Origin: a virus
DNA length: 64,000 nt
IMG/VR virus record: IMGVR_UViG_3300044712_002679
Span: 116,406-180,405 of that record
Reading direction: 5' to 3' (one strand)
Part shown: positions 7,978-50,376 of the stretch, one piece after another
Position numbering within the stretch: position 1 is the first letter of the stretch
Layout: every line of letters starts with the position of its first letter
Translations under genes and position numbers: made by a program
The notes under the pieces: model-generated
Databases searched by the model: none
What the model was told of the DNA's origin: nothing
Seen by the model: the letters and a program-made list of their open reading frames with translations, nothing else

Positions 7978-8053
7978 TGGACTGTATCGGATTTGCACCG
8001 ATTGTTAGCATAATTACTTTTTTGGTTTGCTATGCTTCAAAAAGCAACAGCCC
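7978..8053 (-). tRNA. tRNA-like gene with 17-nt anticodon loop and 4-nt D loop (probable pseudogene or non-canonical tRNA)
   Basis: Acceptor GGGCTGT/ACAGTCC, T arm ATCGG-TGCAAAT-CCGAT, stem TAGCA/TGCTA enclosing AACCAAAAAAGTAATTA; same 3' trailer as the two tRNA-Phe genes. Confidence 0.35.
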
Positions 8054-8055
8054 AT

Positions 8056-8676
8056 TTATTTTTTATATTTATTTTTATTTTTTCCACCATGTGTATCTAA
8101 TGTTGCATTACAATTTGGACATAATATTCTTAAATTTGTTAATCTATGATCATTATTTATCCCATTTATATGATCTAATATTAAACTTATATGTTTTCCT
8201 TTCCAATTTTCATCTTGTCCACACATTTCACACTTTCTTTTTTTTAATCCATCTTCATATAATCTTTCTTTCAAATGTGTTGTATTAAAATTGGAATTTT
8301 CAACTAATATTAATGATAAATCTATTTTTTTATTTAAATTTTTTATTTGAAATTCATATTTAATAAAATGATCAATATTTATATCATATTTTTTAATATA
8401 TTTTTTTAATGTGTTATAAGAAGAACCAAAATTATTAATATCTAATTTAATTAAACATTCTTTATATGTTTTTGAATTTTTAACAATTTCAATTAAATAA
8501 TCTTTTTCATATTTATTTTTTACACTATAATGTGCTTCTATTTTTAATTTTTTTCGTCTTTCCTCAATTGATCTTATTGATCTATCTAATTTAGTTAAAC
8601 AATATTTTAAACCATAAATAGGATAATTTTCAATCAATATATCATCTTCATTTTTTGTCCATTTTTTATTTTTCAT
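8056..8676 (-). CDS. HNH homing endonuclease (free-standing)
   Basis: CEMCGQDENWKGKHISLILDHINGINNDHRLTNLRILCPNCNA = HNH core with flanking CxxC pairs; embedded in tRNA array. Confidence 0.85.
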   Translation of the reverse strand: MKNKKWTKNEDDILIENYPIYGLKYCLTKLDRSIRSIEERRKKLKIEAHYSVKNKYEKDYLIEIVKNSKTYKECLIKLDINNFGSSYNTLKKYIKKYDINIDHFIKYEFQIKNLNKKIDLSLILVENSNFNTTHLKERLYEDGLKKRKCEMCGQDENWKGKHISLILDHINGINNDHRLTNLRILCPNCNATLDTHGGKNKNKYKK

Positions 8677-8767
8677 TTTAAGTTATTTTTTGTAGTATAT
8701 ATAAATATTTTAAACTACAAAAAATCACTATGAACTATAAAAATTCAAAAAAATAGTTATGGGAATG

Positions 8768-8848
8768 CACGACAGAGAGGATTCGAACCCCTGAACCTTT
8801 CGGTATAGTTTTGGAGACTATCAGCTTTAACCACTTGCATACTGCCGT
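8768..8848 (-). tRNA. Class II (long variable arm) tRNA, anticodon CCA (Trp codon UGG), discriminator G
   Basis: Acceptor ACGGCAG/CTGTCGT, class II-type D loop AAGTGGTTAAA, anticodon arm ATAGT-CTCCAAA-ACTAT, variable arm ACC-GAAA-GGT, T arm AGGGG-TTCGAAT-CCTCT; 81 nt. Confidence 0.65.
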
Positions 8849-8857
8849 ATATTTTTG

Positions 8858-8941
8858 CGGAGGCGAAGGGAATCGAACCCCCAAATCATTACTGATTTAC
8901 TTGTTTTCAAGACAAGCCCCTCGTCCATTCGGACCACCTCC
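8858..8941 (-). tRNA. tRNA-Ser (UGA), class II
   Basis: Acceptor GGAGGTG/CGCCTCC, anticodon arm CTTGT-CTTGAAA-ACAAG, variable arm AAATCA..TGATTT, T loop TTCGATT, discriminator G. Confidence 0.85.
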
Positions 8942-8991
8942 AAATACAATTTAAAAGATTGTTCGTTATTTTTTGCTGTATGTATTCTTTG
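8942..8991 (-). repeat. Spacer with conserved trailer and free anticodon-arm-like hairpin (loop CUUUUAA)
   Basis: CAAAGAATACATACAGCAAAAAA trailer after tRNA-Phe; ACAAT-CTTTTAA-ATTGT at 8946..8962, loop identical to the two UUU-anticodon tRNAs. Confidence 0.65.
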
Positions 8992-9067
8992 TGGGGTGAG
9001 GTGGATTCGAACCACCATCCCTGGATTTTCAGTCCAGTGCGAAACTGACCAACTGCGCTACCACCCC
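8992..9067 (-). tRNA. tRNA-Phe (GAA), canonical T-loop
   Basis: Acceptor GGGGTGG/TCACCCC, anticodon arm CTGGA-CTGAAAA-TCCAG, T arm GGTGG-TTCGAAT-CCACC, discriminator A. Confidence 0.9.
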
Positions 9068-9084
9068 AATAAGTATAACGTATG

Positions 9085-9157
9085 TGCGTCTGGTGGGTCA
9101 CGATCCCACGACTCCATCATTAAAAGTGATGTACTCTACCAACTGAGTTACAGACGC
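9085..9157 (-). tRNA. tRNA-Lys (UUU), swapped T-loop ATCGTGA
   Basis: Acceptor GCGTCTG/CAGACGC, D arm ACTC-AGTTGGTA-GAGT, anticodon arm CATCA-CTTTTAA-TGATG, T arm GTGGG-ATCGTGA-CCCAC, discriminator A. Confidence 0.8.
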
Positions 9158-9196
9158 AAAAATATTCAATATGTCAATGAACTTTAAAAAAAATTG

Positions 9197-9282
9197 TGAT
9201 CCCGATGGGACTCGAACCCATGTACAACTTTCGTATCCCACATTAAAAGTGTGGTGCCTCGTTCCAACTCGGCCACGGAATC
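9197..9282 (-). tRNA. Class II (long variable arm) tRNA, anticodon UUU (Lys), discriminator A
   Basis: Base-by-base reverse complement: GATTCCG TG GCC GAGTTGGAACGA GGC A CCACA CTTTTAA TGTGG GATACGAAAGTTGTAC ATGGG TTCGAGT CCCAT CGGGATC A; Ser-like D arm; 86 nt. Confidence 0.7.
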
Positions 9283-9308
9283 AATAAATAAAGAACGTAA
9301 CAAAAAAA

Positions 9309-9334
9309 AATCCGAACTTTTTACGGTTCGGATT
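9309..9334. terminator. Strong bidirectional terminator
   Basis: AATCCGAAC / GTTCGGATT 9-bp stem, 9 A upstream and 5 T downstream. Confidence 0.8.
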
Positions 9335-9580
9335 TTTCTGTTTTATCTTAATTAAAAATCAATTTATTTTGACTTATTAAGTAAGCATACGAAATCCGAA
9401 CCTGATCTATGTGACCAAAAGCTCTTAAAGGATTTACTATGTTTACTTACGTTTCTCATGATTTCTATTTTTTACTTTGTTTTACTTATATAGAAAATTA
9501 ATTCTATTTTGTTTATTTTTTCTTTTATATATTAACGTAAAAAAGTCATTTTTTTCTATTTTTGATTTTTGTGACTTTTC
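9335..9580 (-). ncRNA. Candidate non-coding RNA unit 1 (promoter to terminator, about 250 nt)
   Basis: Bounded by minus-strand TATATTTG box (9587..9594) and terminator 9309..9334. No ORF of 60 aa or more. Nested long hairpin 9378..9449 (TAAGTAAGCAT/ATGTTTACTTA outer, AAATCC/GGATTT inner). Confidence 0.4.
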
Positions 9581-28620: not shown

Positions 28621-29154
28621 ATGAAGCAAAAAGAATCAGAAAACAGAATTAATTATTCAATTAAAGATTTAACCGTAAGGTTAGTTGGTGATAATGTTAC
28701 AAATGGTGTAATTGACACTAAAAGTGCAATAAAATTGGCTAGAGATATGGAATTAGATTTGGTCGAAATTTCGGGTCCAGTTAACGGAAATCCATCAATT
28801 TGCAAAATAGTTGACTATCAAAAATATCTTTACGACAAAAAGAAAAAAGATAAAGATCAAAAGAAAAAGCAAAAATTAAGTCAGTCAGAAGTCAAAGAAA
28901 TTAGAATGACCCCGCATACTGATGAACACGATTTTAATTTTAAATTAAATCATGCTAAAAACTTCTTAACCAATAACGATAAAGTATTAGTTTCAGTATT
29001 CTTTAAGGGTAGAGAAATATCATATAAAGAACAAGGTCAAATTGTTTTATTAAAATTTGCAAAGGAATTGGAAGATATTGGCATACCTGAGTATTTACCT
29101 AAACTAGAAGGAAAAAAAATGCTAATGATGATTAAACCTAAACCAAAAAAATAA
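28621..29154 (+). CDS. infC: Translation initiation factor IF-3
   Basis: RINYSIKDLTVRLVGDN...MELDLVEIS...PSICKIVDYQKYLYDKKKK...VKEIRMTPHTDEHDFNFKLNHAKNFL...VFFKGREISYKEQG aligns along the full length with E. coli IF3. Confidence 0.9.
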   Translation: MKQKESENRINYSIKDLTVRLVGDNVTNGVIDTKSAIKLARDMELDLVEISGPVNGNPSICKIVDYQKYLYDKKKKDKDQKKKQKLSQSEVKEIRMTPHTDEHDFNFKLNHAKNFLTNNDKVLVSVFFKGREISYKEQGQIVLLKFAKELEDIGIPEYLPKLEGKKMLMMIKPKPKK

Positions 29155-30716: not shown

Positions 30717-31307
30717 TTATTTTGTGTTTAAATCAAATTCCACTATTTTATCTTTTGGTTTGATTGTTATTATATTAACAATTTTTTTCATATTATATAA
30801 CACCATCATTTTACCATTACCAAATGGATTATTCATTAAATCGTAATCTACTCCATTTTTAATATAAAATTCCCTAAGATATTTGGTATTTGTTGATTTT
30901 ATTGCTTTTTCATTTAAAATAATGTTATTAAAAATATATCCTGGAACTTTACCATCTTTGATATATTTTTCTAATCTATTCATTACCATTTTTTTCAAAC
31001 TTCCAATTACATAAAATTTTATAAATTCTTTAACCTTTTCAATATCTAAAAATACTTTATTAATATCAACACCATATTCAACTGTAATCAAATATAATTT
31101 TCGACTTCCTTTTGCATATCGTATTGCGGTACTATAATCTGTTGCTATATATAAACCAGCACCATACTCATATCTACCATTTTTTTGTGCAATAATATCA
31201 TCATAATGGTCAAGATTTCCACCATGCCAAAAATTCATAGTGTTTGGTATGTTGGGTGGAAAAATTTCTTCTTCGTTTAATTTGAATTTATCAAATTGTA
31301 ATATCAT
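30717..31307 (-). CDS. Hypothetical protein (possible PARP/ART-like H-Y-E fold)
   Basis: FWHGGNLDH...YGAGLYIATDYSTAIRYA resembles hWHGs...G.GiYfA...S.s..Y of PARP-type ARTs; weak. Confidence 0.3.
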   Translation of the reverse strand: MILQFDKFKLNEEEIFPPNIPNTMNFWHGGNLDHYDDIIAQKNGRYEYGAGLYIATDYSTAIRYAKGSRKLYLITVEYGVDINKVFLDIEKVKEFIKFYVIGSLKKMVMNRLEKYIKDGKVPGYIFNNIILNEKAIKSTNTKYLREFYIKNGVDYDLMNNPFGNGKMMVLYNMKKIVNIITIKPKDKIVEFDLNTK

Positions 31308-32896: not shown

Positions 32897-33355
32897 TTAA
32901 ATTAATGATTGAAATTTTACATATTTTTTAGGACACAAATAAAAATTTCGATAACTTTTTTCTTTTTTATCATACAATTCTTTAAAAAACCAATTTTTAT
33001 ATGTACTACTATATATTATTAAACACTTGGTTTTAGAAGCATTTAATATTATATAGCAATATAATGTCCTTATATTTCTTTTATCTATTTTATATTTTTC
33101 ATCAACAATTATATCTTGGTATGGTACATCATCAAATGTCATAAAATCTATTTCTTTCCATTGTTTGACTTCAACCCGCATTGATATTTTTATATCACCA
33201 TCATCAGTATGTTCATATCTCGATTCTTCATCTGGTGTTACAGTATATGGTAAAATCTCACTATCAAAACCCAATTTTGTCATCCAATTATTAACAACAA
33301 TTGTTGCTTTTTTAGCATCATTTAAATTTTGCGTAAAAATGTTTCTGGGTTTCAT
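32897..33355 (-). CDS. Hypothetical protein, possible PD-(D/E)xK nuclease
   Basis: HTDDGDIKISMRVEVKQW fits D..(n)..E.K; 4-nt overlap with the polB fragment. Confidence 0.35.
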   Translation of the reverse strand: MKPRNIFTQNLNDAKKATIVVNNWMTKLGFDSEILPYTVTPDEESRYEHTDDGDIKISMRVEVKQWKEIDFMTFDDVPYQDIIVDEKYKIDKRNIRTLYCYIILNASKTKCLIIYSSTYKNWFFKELYDKKEKSYRNFYLCPKKYVKFQSLI

Positions 33356-34722
33356 ATTGAAAATATTGAATTTAATACTGACAATCTTTTATTTATTGTT
33401 GGTAATCCTATTGGTTCGAGAAAACGATTCACAATATGTAAGAATGTTAAATCAAATTGTTCATCAAAATCAATTTTAACACCTTCTTTTTCTACAATTT
33501 CATATGGATGCATACTTCTTTGAAAAGCAAAAACATTATTTTTAGGATGATTACAATAATAATATTTTATTCTTCCACCTCTTATATTATCATATTTTAC
33601 TTTATATTCCGAATTTTTGTTTAATAAATAATTGTGTAATGCTGCAGCTTTAACACCAAAATGCGCACCTTTAATACATACAACATCGGTTACATCATCT
33701 ATACACTTAATTGAATAATTACTACAACTAGTGGTCATACTAATATCTTCGATATCTGCCATTATAAATTCTCGCTTCATATCTTTAACCAATTTTAAAA
33801 CTTTTCTAATATCAATATTATTAGGATTTCCAAATATATACCTTAAAAAATCATAAATATTTTCTCTAACAAATGGTGGTGTAGAAGATTTAACAATCTC
33901 AACACCCTTTGGATAAAAATATGTCAAATTTTCATAAAAAATTCCATCTTCCCAAACAACATTGTTTATGTAATTCTTTTTTTGAATATGTAATGCTGAA
34001 CGATTAATTGTTTCAAGTTCAAATACATGAAGATTTTTAACACCATATCTTGATGCATATTCAACAAGCCAACTGTTATATAATTTTTCAACAAATATTC
34101 TATTAGCATGTAATATCCAATCCAATTCTTCACCCATATAATTAGATGAATCAATCATTGGTTTAAAAGAAATATATAATGAATCGGTATCACCATATAT
34201 GATTATTGGCTTTTCTTTTGGAATTTGTTCTATATGTGAAAAGTCACCAATTATTCTTTTAAATAAAATATTATAACTTTTAAATTCTTTCTTATCTTCA
34301 ATTAAATCGAATTTATTTATATTTAACTTTTTTAATAACCCATCATCACCATCTAATGAATTGTGTGGATAATTAATATTCATTCCATTAATATCCAACA
34401 AGAAATATTTACCTTCTTTTTCGGCTATATATTCTAAACCTAATCTTTTGTGGGTTTCGATATCCAAATGCCACTCATTATAAAAATATTGTTCAATTTT
34501 TTTCAACATAAAATTTATAACATCACGACCATGTGCAGTAATAGCATTTGCTATATGTGAATTTGATATTACAAAATGCGGATTTGCGAATGCGCCGTAT
34601 GTTCCGTTAATCACGAGCTTAAGTGCTAATTGCATCGCTTTCGCTCTATCATATTCAGCTTTTGTTTCGTCTATTCGACTTTTTAATTCCGCAATTTTTT
34701 GTCTTTTTTCATCAGGTGTCAT
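33352..34722 (-). CDS. Family-B DNA polymerase, C-terminal half only (fingers motif B, palm motif C, thumb)
   Basis: KLVINGTYG (motif B KxxxNSxYG) about 35 codons after its own ATG, and IIYGDTDSLY (motif C). No exonuclease motifs or motif A in this ORF. The upstream neighbour is on the other strand. Confidence 0.85.
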   Translation of the reverse strand: MTPDEKRQKIAELKSRIDETKAEYDRAKAMQLALKLVINGTYGAFANPHFVISNSHIANAITAHGRDVINFMLKKIEQYFYNEWHLDIETHKRLGLEYIAEKEGKYFLLDINGMNINYPHNSLDGDDGLLKKLNINKFDLIEDKKEFKSYNILFKRIIGDFSHIEQIPKEKPIIIYGDTDSLYISFKPMIDSSNYMGEELDWILHANRIFVEKLYNSWLVEYASRYGVKNLHVFELETINRSALHIQKKNYINNVVWEDGIFYENLTYFYPKGVEIVKSSTPPFVRENIYDFLRYIFGNPNNIDIRKVLKLVKDMKREFIMADIEDISMTTSCSNYSIKCIDDVTDVVCIKGAHFGVKAAALHNYLLNKNSEYKVKYDNIRGGRIKYYYCNHPKNNVFAFQRSMHPYEIVEKEGVKIDFDEQFDLTFLHIVNRFLEPIGLPTINKRLSVLNSIFSI

Positions 34723-39680: not shown

Positions 39681-40418
39681 ATGTCAAAAATAATCGAATT
39701 AATAAAGATCCATTTTGGTGATAATTCATTTACACCATATGGGCAATGGATTAAAATATTTAAACTTTTTGTTGAAAATTCATCTGAATCAACCAAACAT
39801 AAAATTGATCAAATAGATGAATTTATAAATAAATGGATTGAAAAAGAATATGGTGATTGGTCTATTCCAAATACAATTATAGAAGCCAAAGAAAAATTAG
39901 AAAATAAAATTAATGTTTTTTATGAAATATTAAAAGAATATTCTATAAATAATGAAAAAATTAAAAAAATTATAATAATTCCTGATACTAATGCGCTAAT
40001 ACAAAAACCTGATCCAAAGTCATATAAACAATTAATGAATAACGATAATCTAACGATTATTTTTTTACCTACTGTGTTAAGTGAACTAGATGAACTTAAA
40101 ATTAAAACTTCAAATTTAGATTTTCAAGAAAAAGTAAAATCAGTAATAAATAGATTAAAAGGATATAGAAAACAAGGCAACTTAATTGATGATGATGTAA
40201 CAGTCGAAAAAACAATAAAACTTAAAATGGTTGCATCAGAACCAAATTTTGATAAAACGTTATCTTGGCTTGATAGAAATAACAATGATGATCGGATAGT
40301 TGCAAGTGCATTAGAAATTCAACGGGATAATCCTTCTTCTGTTGTTTGTTTAATAACAAGTGACATAAATTTTCAAAATAAAATAATGATGGCAAAATTA
40401 CCATACAAAGATATATAG
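39681..40418 (+). CDS. PIN-domain protein (putative ribonuclease)
   Basis: C-terminal half: IIIPDTNALI, LPTVLSELDEL, NNNDDRIVASAL, LITSDINFQNK supply the four acidic PIN positions in order. Confidence 0.65.
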   Translation: MSKIIELIKIHFGDNSFTPYGQWIKIFKLFVENSSESTKHKIDQIDEFINKWIEKEYGDWSIPNTIIEAKEKLENKINVFYEILKEYSINNEKIKKIIIIPDTNALIQKPDPKSYKQLMNNDNLTIIFLPTVLSELDELKIKTSNLDFQEKVKSVINRLKGYRKQGNLIDDDVTVEKTIKLKMVASEPNFDKTLSWLDRNNNDDRIVASALEIQRDNPSSVVCLITSDINFQNKIMMAKLPYKDI

Positions 40419-50097: not shown

Positions 50098-50376
50098 ATT
50101 AAAAATATGAAAGAAGATGAAAAAAGTGTAATTGGGGATTTCACAATAAACATTGTGTTATATATTATGATATTAAAACCTGTATTAAAACTAAAACCAG
50201 GTTTTTGGGAATATCTAAAGGAATCTGATTATTTGGATAAAATATGTTATATAGAAAACGATCAAACGATTTATTTTAATTGATGGAATATATTTTAAAG
50301 AATAAATTAGTATATGTTTAGCATGTTTTAATGATATAAGAATTGCACATAATTATTTAAATGATACGAATTAAAA

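Follow-up and report, generated by a model that had tools for sequence, protein, structure and literature searches.

In bacteria and their viruses, a long variable arm is by the textbook rule carried only by the tRNAs for leucine, serine, tyrosine and selenocysteine. The known exceptions, the allo-tRNAs (Mukai et al. 2017, PMC5389517) and the nev-tRNAs (Hamashima et al. 2012, PMC3333845), have been reported or inferred to have a Ser or Leu identity which does not match their anticodon. Phages also carry tRNAs which act against host defences, including a T5 tRNA-Lys(UUU) variant that withstands AriB and mycobacteriophage tRNAs with altered anticodon loops (PMC12409363, PMC10264068, PMC13056530), and tRNA-Lys(UUU) is the main target of PrrC, AriB (PARIS) and a bacterial Schlafen, with AriB also cutting the tRNAs for Thr(UGU) and Asn(GUU). 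Here we describe an 86-nucleotide (nt) tRNA with a UUU anticodon and a class II-shaped body which is encoded at positions 9197..9282 (minus strand) of a 64,000-nt stretch of viral DNA (IMG/VR record IMGVR_UViG_3300044712_002679, positions 116,406 to 180,405, referred to below as the window). It is a real tRNA gene belonging to a conserved and so far virus-only family, and its identity elements suggest that it is most likely a lysine-accepting phage tRNA.

The closest known counterparts of 9197..9282 in shape would be the allo-tRNAs and nev-tRNAs, and in function the phage tRNAs which defeat tRNA-cleaving defences. Like it, the allo-tRNAs combine a long variable arm with an anticodon for an amino acid other than Ser, Leu or Tyr, occur in bacteria and phages and were mined from metagenomes, but they have an acceptor/T arm geometry of 8/4 or 9/3, a tRNA-Sec-like D arm and a Ser identity (G73 or U73), and insert serine, whereas 9197..9282 has a 7/5 geometry which is supported by covariation, A73 and the lysine identity set. 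The model of tRNA-Sec (RF01852), a tRNA marked by an 8/5 or 9/4 branch, a 6-bp D stem and the anticodon UCA, gave no match to it in a permissive scan in which two neighbouring Ser tRNAs appeared below threshold. The nev-tRNAs also place class I anticodons on a class II shape and, according to the paper describing them (PMC3333845), are nematode-specific and implement an alternative leucine code, whereas the acceptor-end identity of 9197..9282 follows its anticodon. With the anti-defence tRNAs it shares being an extra phage copy of tRNA-Lys(UUU), the tRNA which bacterial immune nucleases attack most often, with a structure unlike that of the host's; those tRNAs, however, keep a class I shape and owe their escape to a small number of substitutions in the anticodon stem-loop or the D loop, whereas here a standard loop is combined with a new body plan. 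The 3-bp D stem, G13/A22 and long variable region are those of bacterial tRNA-Tyr, tRNA-Ser and tRNA-Leu, and the arm geometry (a short stem with 3–4 unpaired nt on the 3' side) is nearest to tRNA-Tyr of the same arrays. Unlike these natural class II tRNAs, it carries UUU and is without the G73 and G2:C71 of tRNA-Ser, the A15:U48 of tRNA-Leu, and the G34 and A36 of tRNA-Tyr. Extra-arm tRNA-Lys genes are also found in a cultured phage, Caulobacter phage phiCbK, but these belong to the family of a second window tRNA (5092..5178) and differ from 9197..9282, whose body we call type a, in having a type b body, U73 and an encoded CCA.

A literature search which covered few subscription journals found no account of 7/5 extra-arm phage tRNAs, be it for lysine or for another class I amino acid. 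What appears to be new is a conserved, covarying and so far virus-only family which bears an extra arm on what would otherwise be a proper lysine tRNA, with a dozen further amino acids treated likewise. If such tRNAs receive the correct amino acid, then synthetases tolerate a major change in tRNA shape, and phages exploit tRNA shape, which bears directly on why phages carry tRNAs and on the recently found targeting of tRNA-Lys by bacterial immunity.

ARAGORN called a tRNA at 9196..9282 on the minus strand with the anticodon ttt at position 36, and the Rfam tRNA model RF00005 matched 9197..9282 end to end (model positions 1–71) with 53.8 bits against a threshold of 29 and an E-value of 8.7e-9, placing it within this Rfam family. 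In the Rfam alignment all stems consist of standard pairs and the surplus nucleotides fall within the variable region, the acceptor/T arm geometry is 7/5, and U8 and G9 can be read from the sequence. It has the class II features of a 16-nt variable region with a covarying arm pair and a GCC/GGC D stem with G13/A22, and it retains all of the translation features (U33, A37, G18G19, a canonical T loop, a G-C T stem from 51:63 to 53:61, and 7/5). The minimum-energy fold of 9197..9282 alone was the same five-arm cloverleaf, with a z-score of -1.29 which is by itself not significant. These results bear out the first-pass annotation, made from the sequence alone, which had described an 86-nt class II tRNA with a UUU anticodon, a 16-nt variable arm and A73, and the covariance model agrees with it on both the class II fold and the anticodon. 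It had also called the D arm Ser-like, and here only part of the claim stands: a class II D arm is indeed present, but it is common to Ser, Leu and other extra-arm tRNAs and not Ser-specific. The conventional tRNA-Lys(UUU) which it had placed nearby is present, at a spacing of 39 nt.

Relatives of 9197..9282 were recovered from viral and metagenome contigs. The exact 22-nt anticodon arm was found in nine IMG/VR contigs, and an anticodon-free pattern of the body in 12 viral loci, ten of which have UUU on a long tRNA while the other two are a tRNA-Ser(GCU) and an extra-arm tRNA-Ile(GAU); a metagenome scan added 33 further loci, including one (L070) in which the tRNA is identical to 9197..9282. 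We aligned 32 distinct relatives (alignment A3), in which UUU is invariant, although most of the retrieval patterns had specified it. RNAalifold recovered the cloverleaf from A3 with compensatory change in 14 of 20 predicted pairs and none broken, and when the two extra-arm pairs were included, 15 of 22 pairs had changed on both sides. The covariation score over these 22 pairs was 0.645, compared with 0.178 in shuffles (0/500) and no more than 0.11 when partners were slid by 1–3 columns. Compensatory changes were present in six of the seven acceptor pairs and all five anticodon-stem pairs, and one extra-arm pair (alignment columns 50:62) is AU in 11, UA in 11 and CG in 10 of the 32 sequences. 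A related locus (L080) retains the gene order of window positions 8768..9282, and its sequence differences are compensatory. The possibility that 9197..9282 is a decaying tRNA-Ser pseudogene or a chance cloverleaf has nothing beyond an unusual appearance to speak for it and next to no probability given its Rfam score and its 32 relatives, in which standard pairs make up 99.9% of 701 pair cells and 158 cells are doubly compensated; we count it as refuted by this covariation.

The arm consensus is G-A-U-x-C-(loop)-G-y-U-G-U-A-C, with the flanks GAU and UGUAC invariant in all 32 sequences. Between them lie two covarying Watson–Crick pairs (a median of one when the sequences are folded alone), with four unpaired nt on the 3' side, whereas tRNA-Ser of the same arrays have arm stems of 3–7 bp and 3' linkers of 0–2 nt; as there are only two such pairs between invariant flanks, the arm is both shorter and weaker than a tRNA-Ser arm.

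No type a tRNA was found in cells in two independent signature scans of one genome per species from 185,579 bacterial and archaeal species; the first pattern gave no matches and the second gave 31, which is about the number expected by chance by our estimate, and none of these is a tRNA. A blastn search with the 9197..9282 tRNA found no match in E. coli genomes, and the type a body was absent from cultured phages in GenBank, where the sole blastn match was to a class I tRNA-Lys of a 735-kb phage.

For class II LysRS, lysine identity lies in the three anticodon bases plus A73, and UUU transplanted onto other tRNAs gives lysine acceptance (PMC9976931). This set (U34, U35, U36 and A73) is present in 9197..9282, and A73 is invariant across A3 and found in 40 of 40 long tRNA-Lys of our data set. 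The serine set is absent except for C11:G24, with A73 in place of G73 and a 2:71 pair which is A-U here and CG, AU, GC or UA in the family. The bacterial leucine set (A73, the A15:U48 tertiary pair and G18G19/A20a in the D loop) is also incomplete, as 15:48 is G:C although A73 is present: counted by fixed position, G:C was found in 35 of 40 long tRNA-Lys and A:U in none, compared with A:U in 14 of 16 phage tRNA-Leu. Four A:C cases in this count are type b tRNAs, in which an additional nucleotide before the D stem shifts the count by one, and these therefore also read G15:C48. Of the TyrRS determinants, 9197..9282 has A73, U35 and an arm geometry like that of tRNA-Tyr, which leaves some probability to Tyr charging, while G34 and A36 are both replaced by U.

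These elements bear on the alternative that 9197..9282 is a missense tRNA which SerRS, LeuRS or TyrRS charges despite its anticodon, such that AAA is read in part as Ser, Leu or Tyr, in the manner of the allo-tRNAs and nev-tRNAs. Its class II D arm and long variable region would suit such a role, SerRS and LeuRS ignore the anticodon, A73 suits both LeuRS and TyrRS and U35 suits TyrRS, and the phiCbK tRNA-Lys share U73 with the tRNA-Ser(CGA) of that phage. However, the discriminator is not G73, G2:C71 is unconserved, 15:48 is G:C and not A:U, and the arm is too short and is hinged otherwise than in tRNA-Ser. Furthermore, no codon is used more often by this phage than AAA (99 per 1000), and the conserved lysines of the family B DNA polymerase (PolB) motifs KKxY and KSSTP, among them catalytic residues, are encoded by AAA or AAG. 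This usage and these lysines indicate that the code is standard and that a Ser or Leu reading would harm every protein; a change of the genetic code at AAA was rejected on the same grounds. We consider a missense role to be improbable. The first-pass annotation had proposed a Lys-decoding tRNA in a foreign body, of which Lys decoding is the best-supported reading (UUU, A73), but a Ser-like body does not agree with the missing G73 and G2:C71 or with the arm geometry; three things speak against its alternative of Ser/Leu mistranslation, namely the identity elements, the 10% share of AAA among the codons, and the extra-arm tRNAs for other amino acids described below.

In the same phage tRNA arrays, extra-arm versions were seen for Lys, Gly, Thr, Asn, Met (including initiator-like forms), Trp, Cys, His, Ile, Phe, Gln, Glu and Val, and their discriminators differ according to the amino acid. 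All four extra-arm tRNA-Gly(UCC) have U73, together with G1:C72, C2:G71 and G3:C70; U73 is also found in Cys (3/3) and Thr (4/6), G73 in Trp (4/5, often with A1-U72) and Asn (5/6), C73 in His (3/4), and A73 in Met, Ile, Phe and Val, with Ser-type G73 occurring in none of the Cys, Gly, His and Thr forms. As the acceptor ends match their own anticodons, the rule is one of own identity on a class II body, rather than of a foreign anticodon on the body of tRNA-Ser or tRNA-Leu; the U73, G73 or C73 of these sisters would be explained by charging with neither Ser nor Leu, and this is the strongest argument for lysine over Ser/Leu identity in 9197..9282. The Gln, Gly, Thr and Lys forms of one 360-kb contig (L011) scored 52–60 bits with Rfam, with the insertion in the variable region, and the extra-arm tRNA-Gly family occurs in nine viral contigs, always with U73, and was unmatched among GenBank phages. 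Such tRNAs could serve as natural scaffolds for orthogonal tRNA engineering.

The same sisters raise the alternative of a neutral scaffold, in which class II-type genes were duplicated and re-targeted by changes to the anticodon and acceptor end, and in which the arm serves only the folding of the 3-bp D arm and is of no benefit; 9197..9282 would still be a working tRNA-Lys. When 105 extra-arm variants were compared by D arm, 77 were nearest to an extra-arm or natural class II tRNA and only eight to a class I tRNA for the same amino acid, and two shared scaffolds recur across amino acids, which fits re-targeting of class II scaffolds. Body-plan swaps also occur in the reverse direction in class I-shaped tRNA-Leu, and one tRNA-Lys(UUU) (L062 3144..3221), in which a class II type a D arm is combined with a variable loop of only 5 nt, may represent a form midway between them. 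Against this, the GAU and UGUAC flanks have remained invariant while the stems drift, which suggests more than folding upkeep, and the families extend from a huge phage of 25% GC to phiCbK, whose genome has a GC content close to the 67% of its host (Gill 2012, PMC3556154), yet none are found in the cellular genomes scanned. We regard a neutral scaffold as rather unlikely. The invariant flanks, the persistence in very different phages and the absence from cellular genomes scanned point to a selected role for the arm.

What we think moderately probable is that 9197..9282 is a lysine tRNA of a huge phage, of a so far virus-only family with a class II D arm, that it reads AAA, and that its arm may hinder host nucleases. 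The tRNA would be charged with lysine by a class II LysRS of the host or phage, because lysine identity lies in the anticodon triplet and A73 and the determinants for Ser and Leu are absent. It would then decode AAA, with wobble to AAG, together with the class I copy. In the last step, the weakest of the three, the arm would be kept because the phage tRNA-Lys thereby becomes structurally unlike the host tRNA-Lys, and it could hinder nucleases whose grip on a tRNA involves its anticodon stem, D loop and variable face, as with AriB of PARIS, or enzymes of the Schlafen type, which cut the anticodon arm. A published AlphaFold 3 model of AriB has contacts at position 40/41 and at U16-U17 of the D loop, and this is the side from which a long variable arm would project. 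In the by-catch of our Lys-directed scans, the commonest extra-arm forms after Lys and Met were Thr(UGU) (6/16) and Asn(GUU) (6/18), the other targets of AriB, while Ala (0/18) and Asp (0/17) had none; this overlap was noticed post hoc in a Lys-collected sample and serves as a lead only. The first-pass annotation had proposed an escape from PrrC-type nucleases, which as a general, shape-based escape from host tRNA nucleases is plausible.

A number of points weigh against this explanation. The anticodon loop has the usual sequence CUUUUAA, and therefore nucleases which recognise the loop only (PrrC-type) would not be evaded. Class IIb synthetases reach the tRNA from the variable-arm side, and host LysRS might therefore itself be hindered by the arm. 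The A73, U35 and Tyr-like arm geometry overlap the determinants of TyrRS, and the type b tRNA-Lys of phiCbK have U73 rather than A73, so the discriminator rule is not universal. The escape route by loop changes described in PMC10264068 is unavailable to a standard loop, and a long arm might make the tRNA a target of toxins which prefer class II tRNAs (MenT3, SLFN11-type).

A different use of the arm would be as a handle for phage translation factors such as a phage LysRS, forming a private pair which charges lysine independently of the host. This possibility is raised by the 636-kb phage LR756504, in which a compact 378-amino-acid class II LysRS is encoded amid tRNA-Lys genes and lies about 95 nt from an extra-arm tRNA-Lys(UUU); the enzyme has no Pfam match for the OB-fold anticodon-binding domain and is flanked by four tRNA-Lys genes, one of them with an extra arm. 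The translation initiation factor IF3 encoded in the window and the extra-arm initiator-like tRNAs of related arrays would also agree with such a handle. However, a motif scan of the 64-kb window and a tblastn search of the flanks of the other loci, about 0.9 Mb in total, brought up no LysRS homologue, a search of related loci in viral contigs returned the LysRS of the LR756504 phage only, the remaining LysRS matches in the phage collection resemble bacterial lysS, and phiCbK-type phages have the extra-arm tRNA with no LysRS reported. We therefore see a private pair as unlikely. As a broader and tentative idea, doubtful in our view, large phages may keep a parallel set of arm-tagged tRNAs which retain their own identities, with the arm acting as a self-mark against host nucleases or shutoff nucleases of the phage; such a mark might also be recognised by phage factors, for example the LR756504 LysRS or the window IF3.

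The second extra-arm tRNA-Lys of the window, 5092..5178, is the only CUU tRNA there and is the representative of the type b body, in which one added nucleotide precedes the D stem, C27 and A43 are mismatched, and a 4-bp arm bearing a GUAA loop is joined by a CACC linker. This body is common to extra-arm tRNA-Lys genes of contigs of 187–636 kb, including LR756504, and is also found in phiCbK and 26 related isolates as annotated 87-nt and 91-nt tRNA-Lys genes. Of the 38 viral loci matched by a pattern made from the type b D arm, 30 were an unrelated repeated sequence with no tRNA and were discarded. The Caulobacter phages phiCbK and CcrRogue carry both an extra-arm tRNA-Lys(CUU) and an extra-arm tRNA-Lys(UUU), with U73 and an encoded CCA, and the tRNA-Ser(CGA) of phiCbK likewise has U73 and an encoded CCA. 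The phiCbK genes have been in GenBank since 2012 with the plain label of tRNA-Lys, and the genome paper lists them without remark on their length (PMC3556154). As phiCbK is a cultured model phage with two such lysine tRNAs, the idea of a working extra-arm tRNA-Lys is testable now.

These type b genes also bear on a role outside translation, in which 9197..9282 would be a decoy or sponge for tRNA nucleases or an aminoacyl donor for a non-ribosomal reaction. There is precedent in special tRNA isoacceptors which act outside translation and in the phage use of aminoacyl-tRNA in DNA modification, and 9197..9282 does duplicate the class I copy beside it. We find this highly improbable, as the features required in translation are kept, 5092..5178 has no other CUU tRNA in the window to duplicate, and the 6-kb tRNA cluster of phiCbK that we examined contains no tRNA-Lys genes besides the extra-arm ones.

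The window is phage DNA of about 25% G+C. Its genes include those for the C-terminal half of a family B DNA polymerase, for a helicase and for many homing endonucleases of the HNH, GIY-YIG and LAGLIDADG types (see Table 1 for the coordinates of all features). The polymerase fragment shares 41–48% identity with its counterparts in LR756501-4 and LR745206, 'uncultured phage' genomes of 635–735 kb, and 32% with that of Prevotella phage Lak-A2, and the source of the window is thus related to the largest phages known. When about 50 open reading frames of the window were scanned with Pfam and PHROGs, neither an aminoacyl-tRNA synthetase nor an RNA ligase, a polynucleotide kinase or a CCA-adding enzyme came up. 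At 5091..9282, the wider array contains at least 14 tRNA genes with endonuclease genes in between, and the position of the terminator-like hairpin suggests that the minus-strand cluster headed by 9197..9282 probably begins a new transcription unit.

Table 1. Features of the window and of related loci (positions in the window unless another sequence is named; +/-, strand).
Feature	Sequence	Position	Strand	Details
86-nt class II-shaped tRNA-Lys(UUU), type a body	Window	9197..9282	-	ARAGORN, Rfam RF00005, family covariation
Acceptor stem, 5' strand GAUUCCG	Window	9276..9282	-	Partner 9198..9204 (CGGGAUC), one U-G pair
D arm GCCG-AGUUGGAACG-A-GGC	Window	9256..9273	-	3-bp stem plus G13/A22, class II type, G15 present
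Anticodon arm CCACA-CUUUUAA-UGUGG	Window	9238..9254	-	Anticodon UUU at 9245..9247
Variable region GAUACGAAAGUUGUAC	Window	9222..9237	-	16 nt; short hairpin, A:U and C:G closing GAAA, between GAU and UGUAC
T arm AUGGG-UUCGAGU-CCCAU	Window	9205..9221	-	Canonical T loop
Discriminator A73	Window	9197..9197	-	CCA not encoded
Class I tRNA-Lys(UUU), 73 nt	Window	9085..9157	-	63.6 bits; unusual T loop AUCGUGA; 39 nt downstream of 9197..9282
Extra-arm tRNA-Trp(CCA), 81 nt	Window	8768..8848	-	Variable arm ~10 nt, A1-U72 and G73; same gene cluster
Terminator-like hairpin	Window	9306..9337	.	Just upstream of tRNA cluster
Extra-arm tRNA-Lys(CUU), type b body	Window	5092..5178	-	A73; 47.7 bits; ARAGORN, Rfam
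phiCbK extra-arm tRNA-Lys	NC_019405.1	50139..50226 and 50233..50323		= L129 2985..3071, 3078..3168
CcrRogue extra-arm tRNA-Lys	L130	585..766		
LysRS of LR756504	L001	10761..11897	-	= LR756504.1 398751..399884; Pfam tRNA-synt_2 3.9e-71
Initiator-like extra-arm CAU tRNAs	L003, L010, L064	5388..5475; 1099..1186; 6059..6145		
Further initiator-like extra-arm CAU tRNAs	L078, L124	3618..3708; 2403..2597		
Short-variable-loop tRNA-Leu	L062	5130..5205, 5435..5510, 5515..5589		75-76 nt, A73 kept
tRNAs with stop-codon anticodons (UUA, CUA)	L003, L010	5307..5379; 1194..1266		
Class I tRNA-Trp	Window	5187..5258		
Other class I tRNAs with AUCGU(G/A)A T loop	Window	7729..7801, 7057..7131	-	Also L080 1332..1404
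22-nt motif AAAGAAUACAUACAGCAAAAAA	Window	8969..8990, 7952..7973, 7706..7727	-	Similar at 5358..5383
tRNA-like element GGGCUGU ... AUCGG-UGCAAAU-CCGAU-ACAGUCC-A	Window	~7978..8055	-	Called by neither ARAGORN nor Rfam
Rfam tRNA match, 135 nt	Window	5309..5443	-	45.5 bits; ~60-nt insertion; no ARAGORN call
Family B DNA polymerase, C-terminal half	Window	33352..34722	-	Aligns to RB69 residues ~550-780
Phage translation initiation factor IF3	Window	28621..29154	+	Pfam IF3_N 9.5e-20, IF3_C 5.2e-32
PIN_4-domain protein, possible RNase	Window	39681..40418	+	3.3e-14
Weak PARP-like ADP-ribosyltransferase match	Window	30717..31307	-	

A number of further observations were made in the tRNA arrays. The initiator-like extra-arm CAU tRNAs have the initiator hallmarks of a 1:72 mismatch and a GGG/CCC anticodon stem. 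The short-variable-loop tRNA-Leu represent the reverse swap of body plan, and across the data set A15:U48 was found in seven of eight such tRNAs. The tRNAs with stop-codon anticodons occur on contigs which also carry extra-arm tRNA-Lys, and hint at stop-codon recoding in related phages. The window has a class I tRNA-Trp besides its extra-arm tRNA-Trp, in which the Trp identity (A1-U72, G73) is retained, and in its class I tRNAs for Lys(UUU), Phe and His the T loop UUCGAAU is replaced by AUCGU(G/A)A, in which positions 54 and 58 are swapped to give A54 and U58.

Elsewhere in the window, the polymerase gene appears to be split among dense homing endonucleases, and the PIN_4-domain and PARP-like proteins are candidates for host-takeover or RNA-targeting functions on the basis of their domain matches. 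The Rfam tRNA match with the large insertion may be a tRNA carrying an intron or insert. The 22-nt motif AAAGAAUACAUACAGCAAAAAA lies 3' of tRNA ends at two of its three sites, and at the third it comes after a tRNA-like element that is not annotated. In two of the spacers, the AGAAUAC of the motif pairs with a downstream GUAUUCU and encloses a T-arm-like hairpin, and these elements may be tRNA-like mini-helices or processing elements.

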